DNA from: Eledone cirrhosa
Taxonomy: Eukaryota
Assembly: GCA_964016885.1 (NCBI GenBank)
Contig: OZ024741.1
Span: 95,542,001-95,606,000, forward strand
Reading direction: 5' to 3'
Length of the DNA stretch: 64,000 nt
This document shows, piece after piece, positions 11,251-63,918 of this stretch (position 1 is the stretch's first letter; each line of letters opens with the position of its first letter). The notes beneath the pieces are model-generated. The model ran no database searches and was not told the DNA's origin. It saw only the letters and a program-made list of their open reading frames with translations. A program made the position numbers and the translations under genes.

Positions 11251-11288
11251 TAATGTCTATAATAATGATATTTATGATCTTTTCTTTG

Positions 11289-11757
11289 TCCACTTATTCC
11301 TGGGAGGGTCATGGAGGCAGAGTCATCAAACACTCCTTCCAGTGGGACCTGTTAGAAGCAACCATCTCCAACTGATCCGGCTGGATCCCCAAACGAGACC
11401 AGCCAAGCTTATGGATGTTATCCAACCATCTTGCTCAGGGTCTACTCCTGAGTTTCTTGCCAGTTGGTTTTGCCTGTAAAATCTGTTCAGCAATTCTTTC
11501 CTGAGACATGACCATAGTATTGGAGCTGTGATCTCTCAATTTGGGGAAGTAGCAGCCCTACCTGGAGTGACTTTCTAATCTTCAAGCTATGCACTTTATC
11601 GAGTAATGTTTTTCTAAAGATCGTTTGGAGGAACCCCATTTTGGCTGCTTGTATTTGTGATTGTATTCTTTCGGTCATTACCAAAGATTCATGACCATAG
11701 TTGGCACGTATACCGAATTGAAATGAGTTTGGCTTTTACACCTACCTCCCTTCTGAA
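11289..11757 (-). mobile_element. 3' fragment of an RTE-clade (Expander/Rex3-like) LINE
   Basis: Translation SQIQAAKMGFLQ..LLDKVHS..SLQVGLLLPQIERSQLQYYGHV resembles RTE C-terminal motifs. Homologous to 45229-45700. Confidence 0.75.
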
Positions 11758-11760
11758 TAC

Positions 11761-11826
11761 TGAATAGCATTAAAGAATAGCATTAAAGAATAGCATTAAA
11801 GAATAGCATTAAAGAATAGCATTAAA
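11761..11826. repeat. 13-bp tandem repeat (GAATAGCATTAAA) x5
   Basis: Direct inspection. Confidence 0.9.
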
Positions 11827-15100: not shown

Positions 15101-15833
15101 ACACCTATGGACCACTATGAGGTTCCCTTTTTTAGCGTGTATTTCTAGCGCTGCAGTGAATCTCTATGTTTCCCCTATTTAGCTGCTTCTTCTAGCTCAA
15201 ATATGGACCACTATGTGTTTCCCTCCATTTAGTTGCTATTTCTAGCTCACATATGGACCACTATTAAGTTTTCCATATTTAGATACTTTTTACATCACAT
15301 CTATGGACTACTATCATGTTCCACCTATTTAGCTGCGATTTGTAGCACACATATGGGACACCATGAGGTTCCCCTTATTTAGCTGCTATTTCTAGCACAC
15401 CTATGGACCACCATGACGTTCGGTTCCCCCTATTTCTAGCACCTGTATAGATACCATGAGGTTCTTTCATTTTAGTTGCTATTTCTAGCACATGTATGGA
15501 CCACCACGTGGTTTCCCCTATTTAGCTGCTATTTCTATTACACCTATAGACCATTATGAGGTTCTCCCTATTTAGCTGCTTTTTCTAGAGCACTTATCGT
15601 AAACCATGATGCTCCCCCTATTTAGCTGGTATTTCTAGCACAATTATGGACCACTATGCGCTTTCCCCTTTTTTAGCTGTTATTTCTAGCACACCTATGG
15701 GCCACAATGTGGTCATCCCTATTTAGCTACGGTGTCGATAAAATAAAGTACCAGTAATGCACTGGGTTATTGCTGGCCTTGTGCCAAACGTGGAAACAAT
15801 TAATAGAACACTCATTGTCCACCATGAGGTTCC

Positions 15834-32804: not shown

Positions 32805-33990
32805 CTACAGAATTCATAATATGATCGGCTTGTCTCCCCACAGCCCCGGGGCACAGAATAGAGAAGGCGTTTCCTCGGAGGACGGCAAGGGATACGCGCT
32901 GGAAAAGCGACTCCAACTCGCGGGGCTAACACCTGCGGCTGGCTAGCTCAGCGCCTATGGCGGTGAGTAGGGAGGTAACCCTAGGGCTGAGGACACCAGA
33001 AATCTCCACTGCCAGGGGTTCAACCGCAAACCTGTCGGAGAGCGACCGGTATTTGAGGAGTTTGGCCTCCTCAGCCCGACATGCAGCAGAACTTGGGTTA
33101 ATCGCAGACTGCACCAGGTCGCAGCTGCAGAAAGTGTCGGTGCAAGTGGCATTCCAGACGAGGGGTTTGCCATCTGGCCTTTTGCCGTCCCCTCGGTCCA
33201 GCCCCACCGGCTCGAGCTGGGAAGGGAAGCCTGCAGCGTCCAAGCCATGATTTATGACCTCGTTGAGTGCAGCATGGCGTAGAAGGCGGCCGGCACTGTG
33301 GCGACAGGAAAGCGGGTGGAGGCCGAAAGAGTCTACAGTGGATCCACAGCGACATTGGTGTGGCCCGCAGATCCGGAGGCCGAGCCTCAGGGAAACGCCG
33401 ATGCGCAGGATATTGTCTAGCTGCGTGCCAGTAGAGAAGGCGGGCATGGCATGGAGCCAGGCACCACTGTGGGGTTTGGAGGCCGCACGAAAACAGGCAA
33501 GGCGGTGCTGGTCGAGCTGGCGCGTGAGCCTGTCCGAAGTCAGGCTGCACTGGATGGCATCCCAAGTGCTTTGGGGGACTTGACGTCAGCAGGGGGAGAA
33601 GGAGGAGGGACGTCTACTGGGCTAAGTCCTAGCCGGTGCCACGTCTCACAGGCAGCCTCAGGTTCTCTGAACACAGAAGGTTCTATTGTGTTTTGGAGAA
33701 CCCTGCTGACGAGGATGCGGCACGAGGTTACCGACGGAAGATACACCGGCAAGGCTAGTGAGATAGGGGACCGGAGGCCAAGGCCGCCATACCTGACAGG
33801 TAAAGTGGCCTGTTGCCATCCAATGTCGTCAAATCTGACGTTGCATATCTCCTCGGCTGCTGTTCGGATACAAGTGTCGAGGTCAGCGAGGAGAGATGCG
33901 TGGGTGTAGTATGGAGCGATGTGAAGGGTAAAGAGGAGCTTCGGCATGGCGAAGCACTTCCTCAACAGAAAGAGAACTGGGTGGCCAAAC
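32805..33990 (-). mobile_element. 5'-truncated, frameshifted CRE-clade (RLE) non-LTR retrotransposon
   Basis: WQQATLPVRYGGLGLRS; CCHC motif CRCGSTVDSFGLHPLSC; RHAALNEVI; EPVGLDRGDGKRPDG..LVWNATCTDT; AEEAKLLKY..PLAVEISG. GC-rich island in AT-rich surroundings. Confidence 0.85.
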
Positions 33991-34589
33991 AAATTAATTG
34001 AAACGCATTGTCAATGACTTTCATTAGAAATTTGGTAACGAAATTGTTAACAGAATTTTAGCAGAAAATATCTAAAATGGGTTTGTTTATTCAAATATTT
34101 ATAACATCATTTCAAGTTAACATATCATTGTGAAAATATTCAGTAAACTAAAGTAAAGACAATTGTCTAAATTTAATGGAGTCATATTGAGTTTTCAAAT
34201 AGAGAACTGATTTTTTAAAGCCACAAATAGGGTGTAATTTGAGGTACATTTGGTTCACTTGATACCTTGGAAATAAGGGTATTTATTCACTATACCCAGT
34301 CATTCCTAACAAACAACTGTATTTTATAGGAAAAAAGTAAGAAAATCTACTCAGAGCTATGTTCTAGTGTGCTGTAAAGCTTAGATTTCTCAATATATCG
34401 CAGTCTATATCCTACTCGCAATAGATATTATTGATCATATGAATATATATATATCGCTCTCGCCCGGATCTATCAACAAGATCCCAGACCTCATTCGCTT
34501 GCCGAGTGGAGTAGACCTCGTCAAATCGGACCAAGAAAACAATGTTTCCATTGCTGATATTATCTACCGGTCGCAACTCTTGGCAGAAA

Positions 34590-34804: not shown

Positions 34805-35190
34805 TAATAATGGTTTCTGATTTAGACACAAGGCCAGCAATTATCCCAGTGCATTACTGGTACTTTATTTTATTGACCTTGTAAGGATGAAAGGCAAAGT
34901 TAACCTCAGCAGGATTTGAACTCAGAATGTAAAGGGAAATAACTATATAGTGCAAAGCATATTGTCCAACACTCTACCAATACTACCAACCTACCCGCCT
35001 TATAATAATTGTTTCTACTTTTGGCACAAGGCCAGCAATTACCCAGTACATTACTGGTACTTTATTTTATCGACCCCATAAGGATGAAAGGCAAAGTTAA
35101 CCTCGGCGGGATTTGAACTCAGACCATAACGGGCCGTAACTCTTTGCTGCAAAGCATGGTGTCCGACCCTCTACCGATACTGACAATCCA
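34805..35190 (-). mobile_element. Two tandem Meta-like SINEs
   Basis: Copies at about 34805-35000 and 35003-35190. Confidence 0.88.
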
Positions 35191-35341
35191 TGGATTCAGT
35201 TTCAATCGTTTGACGTCATTTTCCTATAGTTCAGTTTTTGGATGTTCTGCAAAACATCATTTATGAACTTGATAATGAAGTTTAAGTTGCGGACTTATCT
35301 TAAAATGCAATTTGTCTAACTTACACGTTGTATGTATATAA

Positions 35342-35527
35342 TTAATTGTTTCTACTTTTGGCACAAGGCCAGCAAATTATCCAGTGTATTACTGGTACTT
35401 TATTTTATCGACCCTGTAAGGATGAAAGGCAAAGTTAACCTCGGCAGGATTTGAACTCAGATCGTAAAGGGACGTAACTATGCTGGAAAGCATGGCGTCC
35501 GACTCTCTACCGATACTGCCAATCCAC
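35342..35527 (-). mobile_element. Meta-like SINE
   Basis: Near-consensus copy. Confidence 0.9.
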
Positions 35528-37123: not shown

Positions 37124-37539
37124 ATGATATGCATACATACATAATGGCTGCATCTCGACTTCAAGAATTGTTATCCCACCTCATACATGTATGGCACCAA
37201 CATGACCTTTTAGCCCTGCTAAGGACTTAGATTCTTTTCTGCATATGCTGCAGCGAAAGAATAAAGAAAAACCCATGTTCACGCAACACACGTGAACATC
37301 GTGATATCTGTGCTTGAGTCTTTTTTAAGTGAAGAAAGTCCTTGCACTGGATAAATCCCACTCTCTGAACAACGATGACAGATATACAAAAAAGAAGAAC
37401 AGGTCAACATCATTGAATAAATAAATAAATAAAACCTAGCAGGAACCCACTTTTAATTTCTGCTCAATATGTCAGCAGTGAACTGTCCGACTTATTAATA
37501 AATGACATCCTTTTGAACCCTATTCATAATTGGTGGTCA

Positions 37540-38075
37540 TCGGTAAGTTGTTTTTAGGATCGGTATAGTGTCGTACAAAATTTCGTTTTAAGTTCAAATC
37601 CTCGCCCAAAATTGTTGGCGTTGCGCCTAAATCAGAAACCATTATTTTTTAGTGGATTGGCAGTATCGGTAGAGAGTCGGACACCATGCTTTGAACCATA
37701 GAGTTACGTCCCTTTATGATCTGAGTTCAAATCCCGCCGAGGTTAACTTTGCCTTTCATCCTTACGGGGTCGATAAAATAAAGTACCAGTAATACACTGG
37801 ATAATTGCTGGCCTTGTGCCAAAAGTAGAAACAATTATTTTTTATTGATTTAAGGGCGATGGGTTGGCAGTATCGATAGACGTCGGACAAAACGCGTTAC
37901 AGTATTTATTTACAACTTTCTACGTTCTGAGTTCAAATCTTACCGAGGTCAAACGTTGCCTCTCATCCTTCCAAAGTCGGCAAAGTAAAAGACCAGTAAA
38001 TAACTAAAGTTGATATAATCAACTTTCCTCTTCCCGAAATTACTGGCCTTGTGCCTAAATTAGGAATCATTATTT
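37540..38075 (+). mobile_element. Tandem Meta-like SINEs (one degenerate, two complete)
   Basis: Complete copies at about 37650-37840 and 37852-38075. A degenerate copy lies at about 37540-37648. Confidence 0.8.
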
Positions 38076-43010: not shown

Positions 43011-43036
43011 TTATTACATTATTTTCTGTATTTATA

Positions 43037-43228
43037 AGGGCGGTGAATTGGCAGTATCGGTAGAGGGTTGGACGCCATGCTTTCTAGCATAGTTACGTCC
43101 CTTTACAGTCTGAGTTCAAATCCCGCCGAGGTTAACTTTGCCTTTCATCCTTACGGAGTCGATAAAATAAAGTACCAGTAATGTACTGAGTTGTTGCTGG
43201 CCTTGTGCCTAAAGTAGAAACAATTATT
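43037..43228 (+). mobile_element. Meta-like SINE, full length
   Basis: Near-consensus copy. Confidence 0.9.
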
Positions 43229-44109
43229 TTTTGTATTTTACAATGCAAAGCTTCTCGATGAATGTTCAAATTTTCAATTGTCACTTGTTTTTCAATCTCG
43301 CGCGCACGCGCTATGGTTAGCTACAGCTAATTGAATAATAATTTTTCTACGGAAAATACATTTAAAATCAGATAAATGCAGTACACTTACGCTCTTAGAA
43401 TCTGAAATAGAATCAACTCCCTCTATATATCCTATTACACCAAGAATTTGAAAAGTAGTGGAATTACCAATATCCCTACAAGCTGAGGCATTGTCGTAGA
43501 TGTAAACTCATGTTGAAACAGATCAAAAGTTTGCAACCTTTACCTAAAAAATATGTTGAAAAAATCTGAAGTTTTGTCTGCGGGGAAGTATATGAACAGA
43601 TTCCTTTTGAAAAATTTAATTTCAAGCCGTATAATCTACAAGTAAAAAGCATACTGACCCTTTTTACAAAATTTCTTACACTCACTCACCAGGAACCTAC
43701 CTGTCCCACCTTGCCATGCATCTTTTCATCTGACCAAATCAGATCAAGGAAAATCGAATAATTCGATGCGACTTGTGAGTGTAATTCATGAATCTCCTGC
43801 TAAGTTCTTTCATTCATTTTGTCGCCTGAAAAAACTGCACGGAGTGAATCGTCAACTTCGAAAGAACCCTGCACCCCACATGCCCACACACCATCGTGGT
43901 TCTGTATGTGTGTAGTCCTTAATATTTTTGCTTCAAACCTTGGTTCATTTTTTTCTTGTTCTTTATAGTTCTGCAACACTTTGTTTGTAGTTGGACGTCT
44001 ATGACTCAGATTTCCTTCATGTCTTTGATTTACTATTGCCTGTTGTAAATTTAAAAGCTGTTTCTTCATTTCTTTAATCTCATCTTCTGAGTCTCTAACT
44101 TTCTTTCAA

Positions 44110-44212: not shown

Positions 44213-44321
44213 CTTCTTCTTCTTCTTCTTCTTCTTCTTCTTCTTCTTCTTCTTCCAACATTTACACACTCTCGTGTGTTTTGTTTCTCGCCTTTTTTCT
44301 TTTCTTTCTTTTTAATGACGT
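44110..44321. repeat. Unclassified repeat end abutting (TATG)n, copy 1
   Basis: (CTT)n..CATTTACACACTCTCGTGTGTTTTGTTTCTCGCCTTTT..ATGACGT is shared with ~49010-49322. Confidence 0.7.
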
Positions 44322-44372
44322 GTGTATGTATGTATGTATGTATGTATGTATGTATGTATGTATGTATGTATG

Positions 44373-44402
<30 letters not shown>

Positions 44403-44403
<1 letters not shown>

Positions 44404-45006
44404 GGTCACCAGTTGGTGCTACTGGTAACATGTATCCCAGTACAACCTGTCTCATGGTCGGGTCGTTGGCGACTAAACTGGCAACCCCACCAAGGTTTCT
44501 TGGTGAGGAGGGTGACTTTGGACGTCCTGCAGGACTAAAACAAAACCTGTCAAAGGGCAAAGGAACTCTTAAGAGTCAATGGCCATCCAAAATCACCGGG
44601 AGAGATGACCCCTTAGCCTTTGTCAAGGCAGAATTCTAGGAGAAGGAAAACTCTGATATAACACCTGCAACTCTGATGGTATCCAATGATGTTGGCTTGT
44701 TCCTCTTTTTGGTAAATATCATCTTGGTTAAGAGAGTGGGACTGGCTTTGTGCAGTGCCTTTGCTCACTATAAAAGCTTCACGGCACAGGCATTGCTTTA
44801 TATCTGGAGATCTCTCTGCACTTGTCGTCACATGGTACCAAAGGCAATGCACTATGTGTCAATAATTGTCACAAGTGTAGTGTTTGTACCAGAGTTTTCA
44901 AGTCGCTGGCTGGACTAAAGAGTCACACTCGTTCAGCGCATCGGTAGGGGTTCTCCTACATGGATATAAAGTAGTGGCCGTACTCGAAAACGAGTTGGCA
45001 GTCACC
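44403..45006 (+). mobile_element. Non-autonomous bipartite derivative of the zinc-finger RTE family
   Basis: 44634-44796 aligns with the RTE 5'UTR at 50169-50351. 44870-44947 encodes HKCSVCTRVFKSLAGLKSHTRSAHR*, matching the last RTE finger. The tail GGCCGTACTCGAAAACGAG..GGCAGTCACC matches 54225-54256. Flanked by (TATG)n on both sides. Confidence 0.85.
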
Positions 45007-45087
45007 ATGTATGTATGTATGTATGTATGTATGTATGTATGTATGTATGTATGTATGTATGTATGTATGTATGCATGTATGTATGTA

Positions 45088-45226
45088 AGAAACTCCTTTC
45101 CAGAAATAACTTCTGGAAAAAAGAGGACATGTGTGACGTCTGAACGAATATCCTCCACCTCCAACTATCTTACCCTCCGCCTCTGTGCCCCGGTCGACAG
45201 GATGGAGAATACATTGCCCCGTAGGA
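45088..45226 (-). mobile_element. CRE-like 3' end with a (TACA)n tail
   Basis: Near-identical to 62359-62498, which continues into CRE endonuclease-coding sequence. Confidence 0.75.
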
Positions 45227-47160: not shown

Positions 47161-47587
47161 AAAACGAGGAACTTTAACATCATCAAACGACATGCTAGAA
47201 ATAACATCTAAATCTCCTCCATATTTCACCCACATCATTAAAAAAAGGAAGGACAGTAAAGGTGATAAAGATTAAAGAGGGACACCACTAGAATGTCTGT
47301 GAAAATAAGTCTACTCGATCAGGGCCGACCTGGGGCTAAACAAGAACAGCATAACCAAAGGAACCTCTACGTGGTCACCCGAGCTGCTAGAAACAGCAGC
47401 CACATTTCCATCAAATCGTACCCTCTCGTTTTAGAAAAAGACGCGTTGGATAATAGCGTCTTGAGTCCCCTGTCCATCGGATAAAGACGGGATGTTCACG
47501 GTTGAAAAGTCTTTAATTATATGTCTGACCTGAGGCTAAACGACAACAGTAAGAACATCATCTATAACGTTATCATTGTAAGATAAT

Positions 47588-47808
47588 AGGGCGGTGGATT
47601 GGCAGAATCGGTAGAGCATCGAACACTATGCTTTGCGGCATAGAGTTATGGCCATTTACGTTCTGAGTTCAAATTCCACCAAGGTTAGCTTTGCCTTTCA
47701 TCCTTACGGGGTCGATAAAATAAAGTACCAGTCATGCATTGGGTCGATTTAATCGAGTTTCCCCTCTCCCCAAATTGCTGGCCTTGTGTCTATAGTAGAA
47801 ATCATTAT
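47588..47808 (+). mobile_element. Meta-like SINE, long subfamily
   Basis: Full consensus plus the GGGTCGATTTAATCGAG..CCCCAAATT insert. Confidence 0.9.
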
Positions 47809-49009: not shown

Positions 49010-49322
49010 AACGTATGTCTCTCACTGAACTGACCATACATCGTTTCTTTCTTTCCTATTGACATCTTTAAAGTTGTCTTTTACATGTCAACATCGCCTT
49101 CTGTTCAATAGTTATACATAGTTTCATAGTTCACTGTTGCTAGTGTCACTCATATAAACATAACGCGCCATTAGACTCTTCTTCTTCTTCTTCTCATCCT
49201 ACTCCTCCTCATCCTCGTCATCCTTCTTCTTCTTCTTCTTCTTCTTCTTTCCCATAACCATTTACACACTCTCGTGTGTTTCGTTTCTCGCCTTTTTTTC
49301 TTTTCTTTCTTTTTCATGACGT
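49010..49322. repeat. Unclassified repeat end abutting (TATG)n, copy 2
   Basis: Homologous to 44110-44321. Confidence 0.7.
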
Positions 49323-49442
49323 AAGTATGTATGTATGTATGTATGTATGTATGTATGTATGTATGTATTACAACAACAACAACAACAGCGGCATCAAAAC
49401 ATAAAAAAAAGGAAGGGAAAAGAAAAAAGAAAAGGGAAGGGG

Positions 49443-49495
<53 letters not shown>

Positions 49496-50005
49496 AGAAA
49501 AAAAAAAAAGAAAGGAAAAAAAAAAAAAAAAAAAAAAAAAACTCAAAATAACAAAACACACACACACACAACAGAACAACAACATCAACTGCCACCACCA
49601 CCACCACCGCCACCGCCGTCGCCATCACCATCACCAGCGACCTGGCCTTAAGAACAACTTTAATAATAATTTTTCTGCTTTTGGCACGGATCCAGCGACT
49701 GGCCAGCGCATCACTGGTACTCTCTTTTGTTGACTCCGTGGAGAGCCATAACTCTATGCTGTAAAGCAATTATAGTAATACTGGACTGTAATACGATCGG
49801 CTTCAACTATACAAACTCTTGAAAGTCAACAGTTGACATAATCTGGTAATCTTGTATCAGTAATGACGGTAATATATATATATATATGTGTGTGTGTAAG
49901 TGAGTAGAGTAGCGTGTGTGTGTGTTTGTTGTGTGTGTGAGTGTTGCTGTGTGCACGCATATGTATGCGTGTGTGTGTATGTCGTACGTATAAGTGTCAA
50001 TAAGT

Positions 50006-50077
<72 letters not shown>

Positions 50078-50079
<2 letters not shown>

Positions 50080-50380
50080 GCGGGGACATAGAAATAATCG
50101 GGCTGGATGCCCGATCGCGCAGTTAAACCACTGGGAGTGAAGAACCCCTAGCCCATGTCAGGGTATTCTTCTAGGAGAAGGCATCTCAGGAAACTGGGTT
50201 AACTCCGATATAAAACCTGCGGCTCAGTAGTTACCGATGATGTTGATCTTTTCTTCTTTTCGGGTTATAGCTACTGTCGCTCAGAGAGTGGGATTGGTTC
50301 AGTGCACAGTCTTTCCTCACTTTAAAAATATTCGTCACGCACAGGCATTGCACGAGTGCATTAATAATTATTAATAGTGT

Positions 50381-50415
<35 letters not shown>

Positions 50416-50420
50416 TATTA

Positions 50421-50461
<41 letters not shown>

Positions 50462-53400
50462 CCCAATTCAATGATGTTCCAGAACAATGTAAACGAGATA
50501 ATTGCCAATTTGGGTTCTGGAACAAAAAAGATCATTGGCAATAAGGGCAGGGGCCCCAAGTTATCACAACCTGGGCCCGCCCGTCATCGTGCCATTGTAA
50601 TAGAGCCAAACAGGGCATTTAGTCTTGGCTGCTGGAACGTACGGACGCTGCTTGACAGGGATTCTTTGGAGCGTCCTGAACGAAGGACCGCTCTTGTTGC
50701 GAAGGAGCTTCGACGTTACGATCTTGACATCGTGGCTTTGTCTGAGACGAGGTTAGCTGGAGATGGTCATCTTACGGAATTTTGTGGAGAATATACATTC
50801 TTCTGGAAAGGAAGAGATGAAGGAACCAGAAGAGAGGCTGGGGTAGGATTTGCTGTTAAGACTGTACTGGTGAATAAATTGGAAGAATTCCCAGTGGGGA
50901 TTAGTGAGCGTCTTATGTCCATGAGAGTTCCGCTGGACAAGGGAAGATATGCTACCCTGGTGAGTGTGTATGCTCCAACTATGAATTCTGTCGATGAAGA
51001 AAAACTGTCCTTTTACCATGCCTTGAAAGGTGTTTTAAGAAATATCCCTCAGGCAGACAAAGTCATCGTGCTTGGTGACTTTAATGCTAGAGTGGGTAGG
51101 GATTTTAACACATGGAATGTAATCGGAAGGCATGGGGTGGGAAAGTGTAACAGCAATGGTATGCTCTTGCTGCAGATGTGTGAGGAGCTGGATCTGTGTG
51201 TTACCAACACCATGTTCCAACAAAAGAACAAATTCAAGACCACATGGATGCATCCTGCATCTAAGGAATGGCATCTTTTGGACTACGTCCTAGTCAGGAT
51301 GCGTGACAGACAGGATGTGCGGTGTGTTCGTGTTCTTCGTGGAGCTGAGTGCTGGACGGACCACCGCCTGGTACGCGCAAAAGTGAATCTAATCACCAAA
51401 CGTAAAATCCGGGCTCCTGGTGTTGCCCTGCCCAAAAGATTGAATGCTGCTCGTCTTGAGGATAAAAATGTGAAGAGGACATTGGAAGAAGAGATGCAGG
51501 CTGCAGATCTTGGTGAGGATTGGCCGACCCTTAAAAAGTCGGTTTATGATGTAGGCAGACGTGTTCTGGGATTGGTGCAGAGAAAACATCAGGACTGGTT
51601 TAATGAGAAAGATGTGCATATAGATGACTTGTTGGCTGATAAGAGGCGCGCTCTGTCACGCTACTTGACGGCAAGACCACAGGAGAGGAATACGTTGCAT
51701 GAGGAGCTCAGGGATGTAAAATCACGTGTTAGGCGGAGTCTTTCTCAGATGAAGGATCAGTGGTGGAGTGAGAAGGCTGGTGAGATACAAACTGCGTCTG
51801 ATTGCAATAACACAAAGCTGTTGTACAGTCTCTTGCGTGAGGTTTATGGACCGTCTTCTTCTCTGGTGACACCGATTCGCAGCAGGGATGGCAAAGAACT
51901 TCTTCGTGACTCGCAGGGAATTCTACGAAGGTGGCGGGAGCACTTTGATGATCTTTTGAATCAGCCGTCTGTCGTCAGTGAGGATTTCCTCAATCTCATT
52001 CCGGAAAGTCCTGTGAAAGTAGCTCTCGCAGAGCCTCCGACACTTGTGGAGGTTGCAGTGGCTATTTCGAAGCTGAACAGTGGAAGATCTCCAGGTATGG
52101 ATGGCATACATGCTGAGCTCCTACAATATGGTGGTGAGAGACTCCTGCAACATCTTCACTCTCTGTTTGGAAGGATATGGGCTAATGAATCCGTGCCTGA
52201 GGACTGGAGAGATGCAGTAATGGTGGTCTTGTACAAGGGAAAGGGTAACAGGAATGATTGTGGGAACTACAGAGGTATATCATTGCTTTCTGTCGTGGGG
52301 AAAGTTTTATGTAGGGTGCTTCTGGACCGTCTGCTGACACACATTGCAGATTGTGTCCTTCCTGAAAGTCAATCTGGTTTTCGTGTTGGACGCGGCACTA
52401 CTGATATGATCTTCTCAGCTAGACAGCTCCAGGAGAAGTGCATTGAACAGGGCTTGAATCTGTATCAGGTTTTTGTCGATCTGACAAAGGCTTTCGATAC
52501 TGTCAACAGAGATGCATTATGGAAGGTTCTCCAGAAACTTGGTTGCCCTGATAAGTTCCTTGCTTTAGTTAGGTCTTTCCATGACGACATGAAGGCTTGG
52601 GTTAATGTCGGAGGTAACATGTCGGAGCCTATCTCAGTAAAAAATGGAGTGAAACAGGGGGATATTCCAGCACCGACCCTGTTTGCCATATACTTTGCAA
52701 TGGTTTTCTGTGTTGCATTCAGGAATTGCGAGCATGGTGTTTACATCCGATATCGAACCTCAGGCAGCATATTTAACATCAGGCGCTTTGCTGCGAAGAC
52801 AAAAGTATTTACATCAGTCATAAGAGACCTCTTGTATGCAGATGATTGCGATCTTGTAGCGCACACAGAGAGTGATATGCAGCACATTTTGAATGTATTT
52901 TCTGACGCTTGCACTGCCCTGGGTTTGACTGTCAGTCTCAAGAAAACCGTCGTCATGTACCAACCTGCACCTGGTGGGCAGTACACTGAACCAAACATCT
53001 ATGTGTATGGCAAACGACTTGGAGTGGTTGATCAGTTTGTCTACCTGGGAAGCACTGTCAATCGATACGGCAACCTTGACGGTGAAATCTCACTTAGGAT
53101 TAGGAAAGCAAGTGATGCTTTCGGAAAGCTAGAAAGGCGACTCTGGGGTCGGCGAGACATATGCAGGAGGACAAAGGTAAGGGTGTACAGGGCATGTGTA
53201 CTCTCTTGTCTTCTTTATGCCTGCGAGACCTGGGTCACATATCGACGCCACCTTAAGCAATTGGAGCGTTTCCATCAGATGTGTCTCAGACGGATACATG
53301 GCGTTCGCTGGAGGGACCACATCAGTGATGTCGAGATTTTGGAAAGCTCTATGTGTGACAGTATAGAAGCTCTTGTGCTTAAGCAGCGACTCCGTTGGAG

Positions 53401-54024
53401 TGGTCACCTTGCCAGGATGAAGGATTCTAGAATACCAAAACAACTCTTCTATGGAGAGTTGGTTAAAGGAAAACGACCGCCACATAAACCAAAAAAGAGG
53501 TATAAGGATTCCTTGAAGGCCTCTCTGAAAGACGCTAACATCTCTGCTGATGCATGGGAAAATATTGCTGCTGATCGTAATAAATGGAGAAAGACTGTAT
53601 ATGAGGGAAAAGTTGCCTTTGAGGCATCTCGAATCGCACACGAGAAAGTAAAGCGGGACGTGAGGAAGGGTATTGCTGTTGCACTTCCAGACGGCGAGGG
53701 TCCTCCTATGTTTCTGACATGCAGCGTCTGTGCGAGACTCTGCCTAAGCAAAGCTGGACTCGAAAGTCATCTTCGCAGTCATAAAGTAAGACCAGTGGTT
53801 GACTACCAGGCTGCTGTTGGAGATGCTACTCATCATGCTTGCCAAACATGTGGTAGAGAATGTAAATCAGCAGGAGGACTCAAGCGACATGCAAAAGTAC
53901 ACGAACTCCAACCACAGCCGACTATTCCCAGTAAATGTTTTGGTTGCCGACTCTGTGCGAGACATTTTGGATCATTGGCTGGGCTAAAAAGCCACATTCG
54001 ATCGCAGCACTGTTAGTTGCTATC

Positions 54025-54062
<38 letters not shown>

Positions 54063-54141
54063 GCTTATGTGCGTGCGTGTGTGTGTATATATATATGAAT
54101 ATGTATATTATTATTGTTGTTGTCGTTATTATTATTATTGC

Positions 54142-54217
<76 letters not shown>

Positions 54218-54256
54218 TGTGCAATGGCCATACTCGATAACGAGGGGGCAGCCATC
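50078..54256 (+). mobile_element. RTE-clade LINE with an intact ORF and a (TATG)n tail
   Basis: 5'UTR homologous to the 44.4-kb mini-element, a single long ORF, and a 3' stem-loop CTCGATAACGAG followed by (ATGT)n. The true 5' boundary is uncertain because of the poly-T upstream. Confidence 0.92.
50471..54016 (+). CDS. RTE polyprotein: APE endonuclease, reverse transcriptase and three C2H2 zinc fingers (1181 aa)
   Basis: APE motifs WNVRTL, VALSETR, VYAPT, GDFNARVG, LDYVLV, TDHRLV. RT motifs YRGISLLS, QSGFR, FVDLTKAFDTV, GVKQGD, LYADD, YLGS. Fingers CSVC..HLRSH, CQTC..HAKVH, CRLC..HIRSQH. Confidence 0.95.
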   Translation: MMFQNNVNEIIANLGSGTKKIIGNKGRGPKLSQPGPARHRAIVIEPNRAFSLGCWNVRTLLDRDSLERPERRTALVAKELRRYDLDIVALSETRLAGDGHLTEFCGEYTFFWKGRDEGTRREAGVGFAVKTVLVNKLEEFPVGISERLMSMRVPLDKGRYATLVSVYAPTMNSVDEEKLSFYHALKGVLRNIPQADKVIVLGDFNARVGRDFNTWNVIGRHGVGKCNSNGMLLLQMCEELDLCVTNTMFQQKNKFKTTWMHPASKEWHLLDYVLVRMRDRQDVRCVRVLRGAECWTDHRLVRAKVNLITKRKIRAPGVALPKRLNAARLEDKNVKRTLEEEMQAADLGEDWPTLKKSVYDVGRRVLGLVQRKHQDWFNEKDVHIDDLLADKRRALSRYLTARPQERNTLHEELRDVKSRVRRSLSQMKDQWWSEKAGEIQTASDCNNTKLLYSLLREVYGPSSSLVTPIRSRDGKELLRDSQGILRRWREHFDDLLNQPSVVSEDFLNLIPESPVKVALAEPPTLVEVAVAISKLNSGRSPGMDGIHAELLQYGGERLLQHLHSLFGRIWANESVPEDWRDAVMVVLYKGKGNRNDCGNYRGISLLSVVGKVLCRVLLDRLLTHIADCVLPESQSGFRVGRGTTDMIFSARQLQEKCIEQGLNLYQVFVDLTKAFDTVNRDALWKVLQKLGCPDKFLALVRSFHDDMKAWVNVGGNMSEPISVKNGVKQGDIPAPTLFAIYFAMVFCVAFRNCEHGVYIRYRTSGSIFNIRRFAAKTKVFTSVIRDLLYADDCDLVAHTESDMQHILNVFSDACTALGLTVSLKKTVVMYQPAPGGQYTEPNIYVYGKRLGVVDQFVYLGSTVNRYGNLDGEISLRIRKASDAFGKLERRLWGRRDICRRTKVRVYRACVLSCLLYACETWVTYRRHLKQLERFHQMCLRRIHGVRWRDHISDVEILESSMCDSIEALVLKQRLRWSGHLARMKDSRIPKQLFYGELVKGKRPPHKPKKRYKDSLKASLKDANISADAWENIAADRNKWRKTVYEGKVAFEASRIAHEKVKRDVRKGIAVALPDGEGPPMFLTCSVCARLCLSKAGLESHLRSHKVRPVVDYQAAVGDATHHACQTCGRECKSAGGLKRHAKVHELQPQPTIPSKCFGCRLCARHFGSLAGLKSHIRSQHC

Positions 54257-54514: not shown

Positions 54515-54580
<66 letters not shown>

Positions 54581-54613
54581 ATGTATGTATGTGTATATAT
54601 GTATGTATGTATG
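54257..54613. repeat. (TATG)n/(TG)n compound microsatellite
   Basis: Direct inspection. Similar tracts lie at 58667-58910, 59141-59895, 60277-60334 and 61861-62358. Confidence 0.95.
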
Positions 54614-57600
54614 TTATCTCTTTCTCTTAATTTCGAGTATATTTTTTTTGACCGGCCACCTTCCTGGTGGCAAGGTTGTAAAAGAAAAGAAATTGTCATC
54701 CCTTGAATCGCAAGAATGTTTTGCAAATTTTGAAGGTGCCAGCTATCGCAGCCATTTGTAGTCTATGAATTAGGGAGCTGCGCTTTTTGTCCGCAAATCC
54801 AAGTTCAGTCATACTTTGGTCCAAGCGGGTTGGTATATAACCCGTAGCTCCAATAATGATGGGTATGAAGCTAAAGGTGTATCTTGGATACTGGATTTGT
54901 AAACTCCTCATCAATGGTCCGTAAATGTCCTCCTTCTCCTGTATTTTTCTGACAACGTTTACATCAAGTGGGCAGCTGATCTCCACAACAGAACACGTTT
55001 TCAATGTGTGGTCCTAAACAACAATATCAGGCCGGTTGTGCTTTTATTTGGTGGCAGTTTTTATTTTCAGGTTCCACCAGTATTCCTTAGTGCCATCTGT
55101 CTCAATATATTCCTCCTCGTTTGTTGTTAATTTTGTTTTCCGAAGTGCGTTCCAGATGGTTCTAGCTATCCCATCGTGTCTCATGGGGAGGTAGTAGCGA
55201 GATGACATTCTTTCGAAGCTGGCAACAATGTGGCTTACATCCTCGATCTTTGTTTTACATAGCCTACATTTATTGTCAGCTGCAGGCCCTCCTCTTTTGT
55301 GCAGCAGATATTTGGTAGGGAGTTCTTGTTCCTGTATTGCATAGAGATATCCCTCAAGGTGTGATGTCATAAACTTGTCGGAACTCCATGCCAGGCTTTT
55401 GAGTGGTTTATCCCCTCTATGGTCTGTGTTTTACGCCTCAAGTATCCATGCACAACTTTTTCTGTAAATTGGTCAATTTTTTTTATCTTGTTTGAACATT
55501 GAATAGGATCTTCCAATTTCTCTGGGTGAGAGATTTATATCAGGCTTTATTCCATATCTCTCCTCCAGATCAGTCGCTATTCTAATGATATTTTTTTTTT
55601 CATGCTCATAAACCTGGGCAAGATGGTTGTCAACCTTTTTCCTCTGTTGAAGGTGTTGCTTTAGTGTTACTATCCGGGTCTCATATGTTGTTAATATTGA
55701 TTTTAGACCCGGCCACCTTCCTTGCGTGAGAAGTATAGCCTATCCACATCACCATTGATGTTAAAGTTCCCAGTAACACTGAGAAGTTTTCGAGTTCTAA
55801 CATCCATCTCACTTAGTTCTTGCAATGACCAGTTCAGCAGGCCAAATGTTGGCGTTAGAATTGGCACAGCATAAGTATTGTGGGCAATGTATTTGTTGTA
55901 TGCTGACAGTTCTGATGACCATATTTTCTTTACTCTTCTGAGGTATTCAGTTCTGGTTCTCTCCTTATTTATGGGTCCATCATATCTGACATTCTCATCC
56001 TGTCCAAGATATCTGTAGTTGTCACCTGACTGCAGAGGTTGTATTGTCAGGCCGTTCATCTCTAGATTTCTAGAGGAGGGCACAGCTCTTCCACGTTTTA
56101 CTGCCAAATATGCACACTTGGACTCACCAAATCTCATTTTGATGTCGGTTGAAAATTGTGTAATGAGGTCCAATTGTTTCTTGATGTCATTGATATTCGG
56201 CCCATACAACTTCAGGTCATCAACAAAGAAAAGATGGGAGATACTTCTGGGCCCACTTCTTTGTCCACCTTGTTTCCTGAGTAGGTAAGATAGTGGATTC
56301 AGTGAGAGAACGAAGAGTAGCACTGAGAAGCTATAACCCTGAAAGATTCCCTTCTGGTAATGTATCTTATCAGTTTTAACTTGCTCCTTCTCACCTCTAA
56401 GGATCAAATTGGTGTACCAGTTCTTGGTCAGGCGTTCAACAGCAGCTACCAATGGTTGTGGGACTTTAGCTAACTGTAAAGCCTTAATAATCCACCCATG
56501 AGGTACACTATCAAATGCTTTTTGATAGTACAGCCACACCACAGTCATGTTTCTGCGATTCTTTGTTGTTTTTTTTTCTGAATCATTTTGTTAGTTAGTA
56601 GGTGATCTATGCACCCCCCCACACCTCCCTCTTTCCACCAGCTTGCTCAGGTGTTATGATGTTGTTGGTAGCACAGTGATCCTGTAAGAACAGGTTAAGG
56701 CACCCAGTATATCATTTATACATGATGTTTTGGCAGGCTATTGGGCGGTAATTTTTAGCAAGGGTGGTTTGGCTATTTTTGGGAATGAGGAGAGTAGTGG
56801 CAGTTGATAACCAACTGGGCAGTTCTTGTGTGCCTTTAATGGTTTCTGTAAACAACGGTATGAGATCTTGCCGATAGAAAGTGAAATTCTTCAACCAGTA
56901 TCCTGTAATGAGGTCTGGGCCTGGCGATTTCCTATTCGACATTTTCTGTAGAGCTGTTTCCAGTATTGACCCATCTATGTCATATTGTTTTATCTGGTCA
57001 TGTTGGCAGTAGTCCTGTTCCAGTTCTTTTAGCCAATTAGTTTGTCTGTTGAATCCGTCATCCGTTTCCCATACAGATCTCCAGTAGCTCTCAACCTGTT
57101 CTTTTGAAGGGGTGTCGTTTACATGGATTGAGCTTTTGCCACCGAAGCTGCGATAAACTGATTTAGGATCTCTGGCAAACAATCTATTTAGCACGTGTCG
57201 TTTATGTGCTGTTGACTTATATTTTAGTCTTTCTGTTGTAGCTGTGTGTTGTTGTTTCAACTGGTGTAATTTGGAGTTCAAAGTTTTAAATTTTGTATCT
57301 CCAAATCGTCTCTCTAACTTTTTCTTTAGGTCTTCCTGGTGTCGTGTGAAATTGCTCTCTATGTTGCATTTCATAACGACTGCGATGTGTGAGATACTTC
57401 GTCTCAGGGACAAGATTTTGGTTTTTAAATTTCGCATCCACGCTGGTTCAGGCTTTCTGTTTGTATCTTGATTGCGTGGTTTTAGATGTGTGTTATATGA
57501 TAGCAATGTGACAGCTGAAACATATAACAAAACATTAAGCGTTTCAAATGTCGTTTCTACACCTTTAGATCGTATAGCTTTCAGATAATTGCCAGCTATT

Positions 57601-58664
57601 TCGTTCACCGCTTCCAATTCCAATTTAGTGGGTTCTTTACTGACTCTAGTGTTGTATGGTCTGTCACTCACATTAAGGCTGTGTATCTCTTGAAACATAT
57701 CGTTCCATATCACTTGTAGGGTGTCCACAAGTTTTTGGTGCTCTGTTTGTTCAGTAGAGTCATGAATTTCAGCCTCGTTGTTGATGTGGTGACAATTACT
57801 ACTAGAGTTAGCTGACCTTTCTCGCTGTTCTTCAGTGGAAGTGGGATGGATTTCAGCAAAATTGTTGGTGAGCTGTTCACTGTTAGATTTAGCTGGCCAT
57901 TCTCTTTGCCTGTCAGTGGAGGTGGGGTGGTTGTCTACAAGGGCTGTATTTGTAGTATCACTCAATTCCGTTAGATGTATCAATTTACATCTAATGATAC
58001 GTTTTGCCTGTTCATTTAAATGCTTTGGAGAAAAGTCTAATTCTGGGTGTTTGGAGTTCCATAAAGTTTTTAGCCTTTGCATAAAACCGAACTTTTGGGG
58101 TTCAGATTGTTTGTATGCTTCATATAATACTTTGTTAAGCTCGTAGCTCCACTGTATACAACGGTTGTAGTTGCGATATGGTCGAAGGAGACTTGTACTT
58201 TTTGCCATGATGAGTTCGTCTATTCACTAATATTTCGTATTTATTTTTCAAAATAGTCGATGATCTTCTTTAAAAGTTTCGACAAAGTTCTGTCAGAATC
58301 AAATTTAAAGTTATTCACAGCTTGGGTAATATTTCTTTTCAGTTAGTTTTTAATTCTACAACTGTGTTTTAAACGTTGTTCTTGAATCGTTTGAATCGAG
58401 AACAAAAAGAACCGTTACTTAGTATATTTCTTTATGAATGTAATATAATATAACAACACTGTATTTATATGTTAAAGTTTATGTATAATTCATATAAATA
58501 GGTGTTTTACAACACACTTACAGTTCAAACACTTATGTAGAATTATTGTATGTAATCTTACCGCGTAATGTAGCGCAACTTTTTCCAATATATGGTATGT
58601 TGCCTTCATGTAAGCCGTAATTACACACGTCCGATTATCGGACACTGACCACAACGGTCGCCAT

Positions 58665-58666
<2 letters not shown>
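54614..58666 (-). mobile_element. Near full-length R4/Dong-like RLE non-LTR retrotransposon, frameshifted
   Basis: The broken ORF carries KSPGPDLITGYWLK, NYRPIAC, KAFDSVPH, GIFQG, HLFFVDDLKLY, YRYLG, RLYFSRKEGGR, CRLC..HIV and VVEISCP. The 5' leader is about 460 bp. Both ends abut (TATG)n. Confidence 0.9.
54696..58208 (-). pseudogene. Disrupted RT plus CCHC plus restriction-like endonuclease ORF of the Dong-like element
   Basis: ORF pieces 56712-58208, 55703-56548, 55044-55370 and 54696-55004 are collinear parts of one protein. Copy 3 retains the intact motif KHNRPDIVVWD..VVEISCP. Confidence 0.88.
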
Positions 58667-58696
<30 letters not shown>

Positions 58697-58910
58697 TGTA
58701 TGTATGTATGTATGTATGTATGTGTGTGTGTATGTATGTATGTATGTATGTATGTATGTATGTATGTATGTATGTATGTATGTATGTATGTATGTATGTA
58801 TGTATGTGTCTGTCTGTCTGTCTGTGCGTGTGCGTGTGTATGTATGTATGTATGTATGTATGTATGTATGTATGTATGTATGTATGTATGTATGTATGTA
58901 TGTATGTATG

Positions 58911-59140
58911 TTATCTCTTTCTCTTAATTTCGAGTATATTTTTTTTGACCGGCCACCTTCCTGGTGGCAAGGTTGTAAAAGAAAAGAAATTGTCATCCCT
59001 TGAATCGCAAGAATGTTTTGCAAATTTTGAAGGTGCCAGCTATTGCAGCCATTTGTAGTCTATGAATTAGGGAGCTGCGCTTTTTGTCCGCAAATCCAAG
59101 TTCAGTCATACTTTGGTCCAAGCGGGTTGGTATATAACCC
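58911..59140 (-). mobile_element. Dong-like element copy 2 (230-bp 3' end)
   Basis: Almost identical to 54614-54843. (TATG)n on both sides. Confidence 0.92.
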
Positions 59141-59169
59141 ATGTATGTATGTATGTATGTATGTATGTA

Positions 59170-59206
<37 letters not shown>

Positions 59207-59223
59207 ATGTATGTATGTATGTA

Positions 59224-59276
<53 letters not shown>

Positions 59277-59577
59277 ATGTATGTATGTATGTATGTATGT
59301 ATGTATGTATGTGTGTGTATGTATGTATGTATGTATGTATGTGTGTGTGTGTGTGTATGTGTGTGTGTATGTATGTATGTATGTATGTATGTAAGTATGT
59401 GTATGTCTGTCTGTCTGTCTGTCTGTGTGTGCGTGTGTATGTATGTATGTATGTATGTATGTATGTATGTATGTGTGTATGTGTGTGTGTATGTATGTAT
59501 GTAAGTATGCCTGCATGTATGTATGTATGTATGTGTGTGTATGTAAGTATGTATGTATGTATGTATGTATGTATGCA

Positions 59578-59610
<33 letters not shown>

Positions 59611-59771
59611 ATGTATGTATGTATGTATGTATGTATGTATGTATGTGTGTATGTATATATGTATGTGTGTATGTATGTATGTATGCATGTATGTGTGTGT
59701 GTGTATGTATGTATGTATGTATGTATGTATGTATGTATGTATGTATGTGTGTATGTATGTATGTGTGTATG

Positions 59772-59805
<34 letters not shown>

Positions 59806-59895
59806 TGTGTGTATGTATGTATGTGTGTATGTATATATGTATGTATGTATGTATGTGTGTATGTATGTATGTATATATGTGTGTATGTATGTATG

Positions 59896-60276
59896 TTCTT
59901 CTGGTTTTATAATTTCACAAAGTTTTACCAATAGAGAGAGGGTCGGTTTCTAACATAGACACAAGACTCTCTCAATGGAATTTACACAACATCAACTAGG
60001 TAGATATGAATGCATGCATGCATGCATGTGTAGATATGGATGTTATTGTATGTGTGGATGTGTATCTTTTGAGTTGTATGTGTGATGTGTATATGCTTTG
60101 TATCTGTACATGTGTATATGCAGTTATTAGATGCAAAATTTTTGGAATGTTTTACATATTTTTACTGTTCCATTAATGGATTGTACTTGTAATTTCCTAA
60201 CTAGTTGTGTTCTTTCTGTTCCTGTGAAGCCTAGCTTCTCAAGATTTGTATTGAGGCAGTTACTAACATATCCCAG
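59896..60276 (-). mobile_element. 3' end of a second, diverged Dong-like subfamily
   Basis: LGYVSNCLNTNLEKLGF..RKLQVQSINGTVKICKTFQKF aligns with TGYIPTRLDQSMTELGF..HRLQMAAIAGTFKICKTFLRF. The 3'UTR differs. (TATG)n on both sides. Confidence 0.8.
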
Positions 60277-60334
60277 TGTATGTATGTATGTATGTATGTA
60301 TGTATGTATGTATGTATGTATGTATGTATGTATG

Positions 60335-61860
60335 TTTTCTCTTTCTCTTAATTTTGAGTATATTTTTTTGACCGGCCACCTTCCTGGTGGCAAGGTTGTA
60401 AAAGAAAAGAAATTGTCATCCCTTGAATCGCAAGAACGTCTTGCAAACTTTGAAGGTGCCAGCTATCGCAGCCATTTGTAGACTATGAATTAGGGAGCTG
60501 CGCTTTTTGTCCGCAAATCCAAGTTCAGTCATACTTTGGTCCAAGCGGGTTGGTATATAACCCGTAGCACCAATAATGATGGGTATGAAGCTAAAGGTGT
60601 ATCTTGGATACTGGATTTGTAAACTCCTCATCAATGGTCCGTAGATGTCCTCCTTCTCCTGTATTTTTCTGACAACGTTTACATCAAGTGGGCAGCTGAT
60701 CTCCACAACAGAACACGTTTTCAATGTGTGGTCCCAAACCACAATATCAGGCCGGTTGTGCTTTAATCTGGTGGCAGTTTCTACCTTCAGGTTCCACCAG
60801 TATTCCTTAGTGCCATCTGTCTCAATATATTCTTCCTCGTTTGTTGTTAATTTTGTTTTCCGAAGTGCGTTCCAGATGGTTCTAGCTATCCCATCGTGTC
60901 TCATGGGGAGGTAGTAGCGAGATGACATTCTTTCGCAGCTGGCAACAATGTGGCTTACATCCTCGATCTTTGTTTTACATAGCCTACATTTATTGTCAGC
61001 TGCTGGCCCTCCTCTTTTGTGCAGCAGATATTTGGTAGGGAGTTCTTGTTCCTGTATTGCATAGAGATATCCCTCAAGGTGTGATGTCATAAACTTGTCG
61101 GAACTCCATGCCAGGCTTTTTGAGTGGTTTATCCCCTCTATGGTCTGTGTTTTACGCCTCAAGTATCCATGCACAACTTTTTCTGTAAATTGGTCAATTT
61201 TTTTTATCTTGTTTGAACATTGAATAGGATCTTCCGATTTCTCTGGGTGAGAGATTTATATCGGGCTTTATTCCATATCTCTCCTCCAGATCAGTCGCTA
61301 TTCTAATGATATTTCTTTTTTCATGCTCATAAACCTGGGCAAGATGGTTGCCAACCTTTTTCCTCTGTTGAAGGTGTTGCTTCAGTGTCACTATCCGGGT
61401 CTCATTGGTTGTTAATATTGATTTTAGACCCCGGCCACCTTCCTTGCGTGAGAAGTATAGCCTATCCACATCACCATTGATGTTAAAGTTCCCAGTAACA
61501 CTGAGAAGTTTTCGAGTTCTAACATCCATCTCACTTAGTTCTTGCAATGACCAGTTCAGTAGGCCAAATGTTGGCGTTAGAATTGGCACAGCATAAGTAT
61601 TGTGGGCAATGTATTTGTTGTATGCTGACAGTTCTGATGACCATATTTTCTTTACTCTTCTGAGGTATTCAGTTCTGGTTTTCTCCTTATTTATGGGTCC
61701 ATCATATCTGACATTCTCATCCTGTCCAAGATATCTGTAGTTGTCACCTGACTGCAGAGGTTGTATTGTCAGGCCGTTCATCTCTAGATTTCTAGAGGAG
61801 GGCACAGCTCTTCCACGTTTTACTGCCAAATATGCACACTTGGACTCACCAAATTTCATT
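60335..61860 (-). mobile_element. Dong-like element copy 3 (1.5 kb, 5'-truncated)
   Basis: Highly similar to 54614-56139 with independent substitutions. Intact CCHC (CRLC..H..SC) and RPD..D..E motif. (TATG)n on both sides. Confidence 0.92.
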
Positions 61861-61921
61861 ATGTATGTATGTATGTATGTATGTATGTACGTTTGTATGT
61901 ATGTATGTATGTATGTATGTA

Positions 61922-61956
<35 letters not shown>

Positions 61957-61987
61957 ATGTATATATGTATGTATGTATGTATGTATG

Positions 61988-62058
<71 letters not shown>

Positions 62059-62101
62059 ATGTGTGTGTATGTATGTATGTGTGTGTGTGTGTGTGTGTAT
62101 G

Positions 62102-62198
<97 letters not shown>

Positions 62199-62203
62199 AT
62201 GTA

Positions 62204-62250
<47 letters not shown>

Positions 62251-62251
62251 A

Positions 62252-62286
<35 letters not shown>

Positions 62287-62358
62287 ATGTATGTATGTAT
62301 GTATGTATGTATGTATGTATGTATGTATGTATGTGTATGTATGTGTGTGTATGTATGT

Positions 62359-62722
62359 AAAAATTCCTTTCCAGAAATAACCTCTGGAAAAAAGAGGGAA
62401 TGTGTGACGTCAGAACGAATATCCTCCACCTCCAACTAACTTACCCTCCACCTCTGGGTCCTGATCGACAGGATGGAGAATACATTGCCCCGTAGGATAG
62501 TGAGGAACAGTCACTTCACCTGGCGGGGCTGGCACCTGCAGGCAGCTAACTCCGCTCCGATAGTAGTGAGTAGCGTTGTGGTCCTGTGGCCAAGAACGCC
62601 GGAAGTCTCCACAGATTCAGACTCTACCACAAACCTATCAGAGAACGGCCGATACTTGGACAGTTTGCCCTCATCGGCCTGGCACGCAGCAGAGCCTGGG
62701 CTGGCAGCCGAACGCACCAGGT
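62359..62722 (-). mobile_element. CRE-like 3' fragment with a (TACA)n tail
   Basis: SAACQADEGKLSKYRPFSDRFVVESESVETSGVLG..LLTTIGAELAACRC aligns with the C-terminus of the element at 32.9 kb. Confidence 0.85.
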
Positions 62723-63534: not shown

Positions 63535-63918
63535 ATTGGCAGTATCGGTAGAGGGTCGGACGCCATGCTTTGACGCATAGAGTTACGGCCCTTGCCATTC
63601 TGAGTTCAAATCCCGCCGAGGTTAACTTTGCCTTTCATCCTTACGGGGTCGATAAAATAAAGTACCAGTAATGTACTGGGTAATTGCTGGCCTTGTGCCA
63701 AATGTAGAAACAATTATTAGAAAAGGACGGTGGATTGGCTGTATCGGTAGAGAGTCGGACGCCATGCTTTACAGCATAGAGTTACGTCCTTTTACAGATT
63801 GAGTTCAAATTCCGCCGAGGTTAACTTTGCCTTTCATCCTTACGGGGTTGATAAAATATAGTACCAGTCATGTACTGGGTATTTGCTGACCTTGTGCCAA
63901 AAGTAGAAACAATTATTA
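63535..63918 (+). mobile_element. Two tandem Meta-like SINEs
   Basis: Near-consensus copies at about 63535-63718 and 63725-63918. Confidence 0.9.

Follow-up and report, generated by a model that had tools for sequence, protein, structure and literature searches.

Non-autonomous derivatives of RTE retrotransposons with a bipartite structure are well described (Kojima 2018, PMC5786205), and RTEs often generate families of this kind (Kojima 2018, PMC5786205; Kojima 2020). Bipartite RTEs such as RTE-N2_Lch, RTESINE1/2, WALLSI3, MAR4_MD and Bov-A (PMC5786205) consist of a 5'UTR and a 3' end with a microsatellite tail, have lost the ORF, carry no Pol III head and keep a conserved 5'UTR domain. That domain is placed in the middle of the UTR in RTEs, and bipartite LINEs are said there usually to retain the 5' end of their parent; variable 5' ends have also been described for tobacco RTEs. 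A related design is that of the SIDEs of R2, which Eickbush 2012 (PMC3414825) presents as short, internally deleted elements with both ends kept and a proposed mobility in trans. The conserved RTE 5'UTR domain is present in Ceph-SINEs and tRNA-CORE-RTE5' SINEs as well, and RTE-2_OV of Octopus vulgaris (Petrosino 2022, PMC9115989) combines APE and RT with a C2H2 finger, a feature that the article calls relatively rare in RTEs.

The element described here occupies 604 nt on the plus strand (44403-45006) of a 64-kb stretch of DNA, which we call the window and always take at its full length. It is another example of the bipartite design known from Kojima 2018 (PMC5786205), from an RTE lineage with three C-terminal C2H2 fingers: an RTE 5'UTR is joined to the end of the ORF, followed by a tail hairpin and an (ATGT)n tail. 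Both parts derive from an RTE, and the element is ~68% identical to a full-length three-finger RTE downstream (the neighbouring RTE; Table 1). The match between the 5'UTRs (44590-44796 against 50125-50351, 156 of 229 positions or 68%, E 3e-25 in a search within the 64-kb window) bears out the homology proposed in the first-pass annotation, all of whose quoted motifs were found. Its general description of the locus as a bipartite RTE derivative is likewise retained here; the element has an RTE 5'UTR part, an RTE 3' end with a microsatellite tail and a deleted EN/RT region. The conserved domain lies at nt ~210-255 of the element, and the copy looks decayed, with one frameshift and with mismatches in its helices.

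Table 1. Features of the bipartite element, its relatives and its surroundings, in coordinates of the 64-kb window
Feature	Position	Strand	Basis
(TGTA)20 tract, likely pre-existing insertion target	44323-44402	+	TRF
First 187 nt of the element, no homologue elsewhere in the window	44403-44589	+	Window search
Inverted repeats in the 5' part	44404-44413/44476-44485; 44485-44494/44499-44508; 44511-44527 (5' arm of 17-bp helix)	+	
Conserved RTE 5'UTR domain	44590-44660	+	Aligns to neighbouring RTE from 50125
Second RTE 5'UTR block (GATGTTG..AGAGAGTGGGA..CTCACT..GCACAGGCATTGC)	44661-44796	+	Alignment to neighbouring RTE and second bipartite copy
Likely junction, TGC in which the 5'UTR homology ends and which is also the second Cys codon of finger 2	44794-44796	+	Profile fit, tblastn bound
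Decayed second half of finger 2 and 14-residue linker (length as in neighbouring RTE)	44794-44875	+	Profile, tblastn
Last C2H2 finger (44876-44941) and stop codon (44945-44947)	44876-44947	+	Pfam, ORF alignment
59-nt 3'UTR, tail hairpin CTCG-AAAA-CGAG (44983-44994), GCAGTCACC terminus	44948-45006	+	
(ATGT)20 tract, either tail or target; a decayed LINE on the minus strand shares it tail-to-tail	45007-45087	+	TRF
Second bipartite mini-RTE	37144-37419	-	UTR block, finger and tail matches
Second copy: 5'-truncated 5'UTR block	37419 to ~37300	-	
Second copy: non-finger spacer, ~50 nt, between UTR block and finger		-	
Second copy: last finger	37252-37187	-	Stop-free frame
Second copy: tail hairpin CTTG-AAGT-CGAG, then short (ATGT)n		-	
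Autonomous-type RTE, a relative, not the parent	50078-54256	+	5'UTR remnant, single ORF, tail, (ATGT)n
C2H2 fingers of the neighbouring RTE	53720-53782, 53840-53902, 53945-54013	+	
SINE-like family copies	43036-43232, 47585-47808, 37652-37843, 34806-35527, 63535-63917, 2188-2822, others		

When set against the bipartite RTEs in PMC5786205, the element shares the 5'UTR joined to a 3' end with a microsatellite tail, the loss of the ORF, the lack of a Pol III head and the conserved 5'UTR domain. It differs in that its 3' end measures ~210 nt with 1.5 zinc-finger codings, as opposed to ~40-90 nt in the tabulated examples, and in that its parent lineage has three C-terminal C2H2 fingers. By eye, the motif at 44590-44660 is also present in the Kojima 2018 supplement (PMC5786205). 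A further comparison by eye shows that the UTR motif just before the end of the 5' piece is the one near which the 5' piece of the marsupial WALLSI1A ends. The SIDEs of R2 have an HDV-like ribozyme and insert into 28S rDNA, whereas the present element belongs to the RTE clade and no ribozyme was found in it. Its conserved 5'UTR domain is 73-81% identical to SINE copies retrieved from public contigs by a motif scan; unlike the Ceph-SINEs and tRNA-CORE-RTE5' SINEs, it has no tRNA head or A/B box, and the retrieved tRNA-CORE-RTE5' copies lack the second UTR block, the finger and the tail. RTE-2_OV is described as having 1109 aa and ~600-nt UTRs, whereas the neighbouring RTE encodes 1181 aa with three fingers and its 3'UTR is short.

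A scan of prokaryote genomes for the UTR motif returned 30 loci, 24 of them on animal-like contigs of two MAG records and 6 apparently due to chance. The bacterial MAG records CAXXGD01 and CAXXMW01 hold contigs of up to 539 kb that are dense in tRNA-CORE-RTE5' SINEs and LINE remnants and look like misbinned animal DNA; at one locus (L002), the 3' part of the SINE is present in four tandem 123-nt copies.

Nearly the whole ORF is missing from the element. By tblastn with the neighbouring ORF, only aa 1140-1180 match, leaving ~1130 codons absent, including EN and RT; measured on the neighbouring RTE, the loss amounts to 3390 nt of ORF and 3509 nt in all, in good agreement with the ~3.4 kb of ORF estimated at first. 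The tblastn match runs ungapped leftward to a His codon at 44819, which sets the right bound of the junction. When the second half of finger 2 was modelled as a profile from 44 relatives, the best fit lay at 44794 and required one frameshift, at ~44818; it was matched by 3 of 300 shuffles and brought a gain of 4.6 bits in HMM score. The His-x3-His motif and the 14-residue linker keep the register of the neighbouring ORF. By these alignments a finger-2 remnant, with the frameshift allowed, is moderately supported. Since the 5'UTR homology ends at 44796 and the finger-2 fit starts at 44794, the two halves overlap by TGC, and the junction probably lies at this 3-nt microhomology and no later than ~44819. 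The position of 44850-44870 given in the first-pass annotation is thus too far downstream, with half of finger 2 and the linker retained instead.

This junction occurs once in the 64-kb window. When the 57-aa frame was compared with longer proteins and with proteins of similar length, none was found to span the linker and junction; a search of all representative proteins gave 137 matches, none covering the query from its start, which are apparently generic multi-finger proteins.

The bipartite architecture itself recurs in the window, in a second independent copy about 7 kb away on the other strand (Table 1). No finger-2 remnant was found in the spacer of this copy (130 of 300 shuffles as good), and its junction therefore differs from that of the 604-nt element; the spacer contains a hairpin (z -2.45, 4 of 200 shuffles), and the signature of the last finger is lost. 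Within the second UTR block, the 604-nt element is identical to the neighbouring RTE at 75 of 110 positions and to the second copy at 76 of 110, and these latter two agree with each other at 83 of 111. Within the window, profiles of the UTR block, the tail and finger 3 all recovered these three copies and no others; the 30 loci from the prokaryote genome scan had neither the second UTR block nor the finger or tail. Two of these three lineage copies are bipartite and none is an ordinary 5'-truncated ORF fragment. Under a model of random deletion, the probability that both breakpoints fall in the windows seen is 0.0027 per element and 7e-6 for two, values that serve as a guide only because the breakpoint windows were picked after the data had been seen.

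The last finger was annotated as still open, and so it is: the frame is free of stops for 57 codons (44774-44944), Pfam zf-C2H2 matches at 44876-44941 with E 6e-5, just below the curated cut-off, and the alignment score of 89 against the neighbouring ORF was reached by 0 of 500 shuffles. The signature S-x-[AS]-G-L-x-S-H-x-R is present in this finger and in 39 of 44 three-finger RTE relatives. There is no in-frame ATG upstream of the finger, and the in-frame ATGs give only peptides of 9 and 4 aa without it. Because the stop codon stands only 59 nt from the end of the element, any longer 3' piece includes finger sequence, and the retained finger is likely to be a passenger of a very short 3'UTR; in the 44 relatives, the ORF ends a median of 13 residues after the first His of the last finger.

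Among the three copies in the window, the 4-bp tail stem pairs in every one, in one of them by a U-G wobble, and the terminus GCAGYCAY is followed in each by ATGT repeats in the same phase. The tail of the 604-nt element is identical to that of the neighbouring RTE at 25 of 30 positions, and the tail hairpin reported initially is present as CTCG-AAAA-CGAG. An M-A-I-L-like ORF end is found in 12 of the 44 three-finger relatives, and the tail sequence ATGGCCATACTC would encode it, so that the ORF of three-finger RTEs may overlap the tail hairpin. The initial suggestion that the element defines the minimal cis sequences was overstated, as the lengths retained to the left and right of the junction are not the same in the two bipartite copies and the finger is most simply read as a passenger.

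The 5' end of the element differs from that of the neighbouring RTE. Where ~230 bp of additional 5' sequence had been noted, we count 187 nt, 44590-44633 being alignable to the neighbouring RTE. These 187 nt are probably the distal 5'UTR of the parent RTE itself, missing or replaced in the neighbouring RTE, whose short 5' remnant has a similar helix-plus-hairpin fold pattern (z -2.2, 4 of 200 shuffles). The 5' part had also been called hairpin-rich: inverted repeats are indeed present, but over the full 44403-44632 the sense strand folds no better than shuffled sequence (z = -0.48, 64 of 200 shuffles as good). The antisense strand of the same segment folds with z = -3.15 (1 of 200), the best strand-neutral helix of the 5' part is reached by 14 of 300 shuffles, and within the subwindow 44484-44602 the sense strand (5 of 200 shuffles as good) has z -2.0 versus z -4.3 for the antisense. 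The top eight strand-neutral helices contain 7 G-U versus 10 A-C pairs and the top four 0 versus 8; decay of Watson-Crick helices is enough to account for the strong antisense folding.

RTEs have been reported with HDV-like ribozymes (Ruminski 2011, as related in citing papers). An Rfam scan of the window at gathering thresholds gave no hits, and a scan of 44300-45100 with an E-value limit of 10 gave 24 Rfam matches, none of them to a ribozyme. With a descriptor of the HDV-like nested double pseudoknot (7-bp P1, P3/L3, P1.1 and catalytic C), the best sense parse, from G44404, was equalled or bettered by 31 of 60 shuffles and so lends no support to such a fold; the antisense parse has a penalty of 3, a level reached by 10 of 60 sense-strand shuffles. 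A hammerhead core was found on neither strand of the 5' part. We also discarded a pseudoknot between 44556-44563 and 44617-44624, which is reached by 110 of 5000 shuffles in the element but by 3246 of 5000 at the matching place of the neighbouring RTE, and which has no partner specificity. Identity as a Pol III SINE is rejected as well, there being no tRNA, 5S or 7SL head with an internal promoter in 44403-45006: ARAGORN predicted no tRNA genes, A/B boxes were not matched and Rfam gave no Pol III head.

The neighbouring RTE has an ORF of 1181 aa (50471-54016) with APE, RT and three C-terminal C2H2 fingers (Pfam Exo_endo_phos, E 1e-11; RVT_1, E 1e-30), its assignment to the RTE clade being made from the RTE 5'UTR domain and the layout of the ORF. 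With the last 282 aa as query, 92 relatives were found at up to 56% identity, 44 of which have three C-terminal C2H2 fingers; among the animal homologues of the ORF, only proteins from lancelet and tapeworm were named. Finger 3 of the 604-nt element is identical to that of the neighbouring RTE at 40 of 63 nt, and different codons are used in 9 of the 14 identical residues, which argues that the parent of the element split from the neighbouring RTE while both were coding. On this codon evidence, the element belongs to a lineage other than the family of the neighbouring RTE, in line with the sister subfamily proposed in the first-pass annotation. Its parent was not found in the protein sets, where the best finger-3 match among the 44 relatives was 15 of 21 aa. 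Very long runs of T or A occur at 50008-50077, 50425-50461, 54180-54215 and 49443-49541, two of them directly after (TAT)n inside the full-length RTE; these may be artefacts of sequencing or assembly, which would obscure the 5' end of the neighbouring RTE and the start of its ORF.

As annotated, the element stands between two (TATG)n tracts. Its left flank recurs at 49259-49368 (61 of 64 nt identical) with a TATG tract of its own and without the element. Both flanks of the element being (TATG)n, a target-site duplication is indistinguishable from the tract. Judged from one site, the arrangement is consistent with the RNA tail having directed the element into a (TATG)n tract that was already there, and guidance of RTE insertion by a microsatellite tail is a published model. 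The recurrent flank is a 64-nt unit (44256-44322 and 49259-49322, 95% identical) between (CTT)n and (TATG)n tracts; it contains an inverted repeat (ACACAC/GTGTGT), is rich in T at its end, and is possibly the tail of another short retroelement. On the other side, at ~46260-45088 on the minus strand, the 3' fragment of a decayed LINE, which has RT remnants and ends in (CATA)n, lies tail-to-tail with the element; its last 139 nt recur at 92% beside another TATG tract (tail paralogue at 62361-62497), and 11288-11765 is grouped with this fragment.

The window as a whole is animal-type DNA with many microsatellites, SINE-like repeats and LINE fragments. On the minus strand at 54557-62435 is an array of LINE fragments, which we take to be Dong/R4-like, with RT, a C-terminal zinc-knuckle/endonuclease-like region and long (TATG)n tracts between them, and this suggests that a second LINE clade uses the same TATG microsatellite; a 1.6-kb duplication (54557-56145 and 60276-61868) is 97.6% identical. 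An abundant SINE-like family of ~190-220 nt is represented by over 10 copies that are 78-91% identical and in part arranged in tandem. Minisatellite arrays occupy 12340-15728 (50-nt unit) and 16968-25718 (40-nt unit, ~223 copies, higher-order period 235), and GC-rich ORF fragments at 32926-34010 on the minus strand resemble, by eye, another non-LTR RT element.

We consider it reasonably probable that the 604-nt element was mobilised as a non-autonomous unit, with an intact sister RTE supplying the protein. A founder would have arisen when an RTE LINE lost 3.5 kb internally and its 5'UTR became joined to its final ~210 nt, through a template jump of the RT or through repair at the 3-nt TGC microhomology. 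The retained 5'UTR may have provided Pol II transcription signals or RNP binding, or transcription may have come from read-through; the tail hairpin would then be recognised by the RT of the sister RTE, and the (AUGU)n end of the RNA would pair with a nicked (TATG)n target and prime reverse transcription, which would leave a tract on both sides of the element. Against a family stand the absence of a second copy of the junction from the 64 kb and the low identity of the two bipartite copies (only 76/110), and their differing junctions are also what repeated one-off events would be expected to give.

Such events could have come about if the RT, copying full-length RNA, skipped to the 5'UTR while still close to the 3' end, perhaps with both RNA ends held together in the RNP, and if none of the resulting junctions was ever amplified. 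This is possible, if on the doubtful side: the junctions that differ between the two copies, the 3-nt microhomology at the join and the lack of a duplicate junction in the window all speak for it, yet the usual by-product of LINE insertion is ordinary 5' truncation, of which there is no case among the three copies. Amplified bipartite RTE families are, moreover, common (Kojima 2018; Kojima 2020). Insertion of a full-length RTE that later lost its middle by microhomology-mediated genomic deletion would leave identical-looking termini and tracts, and the microhomology is compatible with end-joining; two independent near-exact removals of the ORF are improbable (7e-6, for windows chosen post hoc), and we regard this history as unlikely. 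We give little credence to a more far-reaching reading, in which the 3' recognition signal would extend into finger-coding RNA, three-finger RTEs would repeatedly spawn parasites and the 5' ~190 nt would be an undescribed RNA element made up of a 17-bp helix domain and a four-way junction closed by the extreme 5' end; such a fold, perhaps a new one for self-cleavage or processing, would release the unit from transcripts that read through the microsatellite.

It is very improbable that unrelated fragments came to lie side by side by chance, or that the assembly collapsed in this region rich in microsatellites. The homopolymer runs beside (TAT)n (50425-50461, 54180-54215) do resemble sequencing trouble, but a tandem-repeat scan found no tandem array inside the 604 nt, the parts stand in correct order and strand, a second copy has the same design, and the element is ~30% diverged from the neighbouring RTE and so is not its collapsed copy. 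That the finger was kept as a translated small functional zinc-finger peptide is the least credible reading of all, for although its frame is stop-free in both bipartite copies, the finger has no in-frame ATG upstream and a frameshift just before it, an open frame of 57 codons is unremarkable, the protein-set searches found no matching small protein and the second copy has lost the signature.

Our search of the literature on RTEs, molluscs and cephalopods found no description of the element at 44403-45006, and the motifs of the window were absent from the supplements of Petrosino 2022 (4 of 8 files), Bonar 2026 (1 file), Martelossi 2023 (12 of 33 files) and Nishihara 2016 (files other than file 1). 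The general picture of bipartite RTEs is unchanged by this element. If its junction proves to be multicopy, non-autonomous movement of the 604-nt element would provide an invertebrate example of the known step from RTE LINE to SINE, from the less-studied three-finger lineage. The two independent deletions bracket candidate cis parts, with the second 5'UTR block, the RNA coding for the last finger and the tail hairpin present in both copies. They also offer a natural deletion series for the question of why RTEs retain the 5'UTR in their non-autonomous forms, which Kojima 2018 leaves unanswered.
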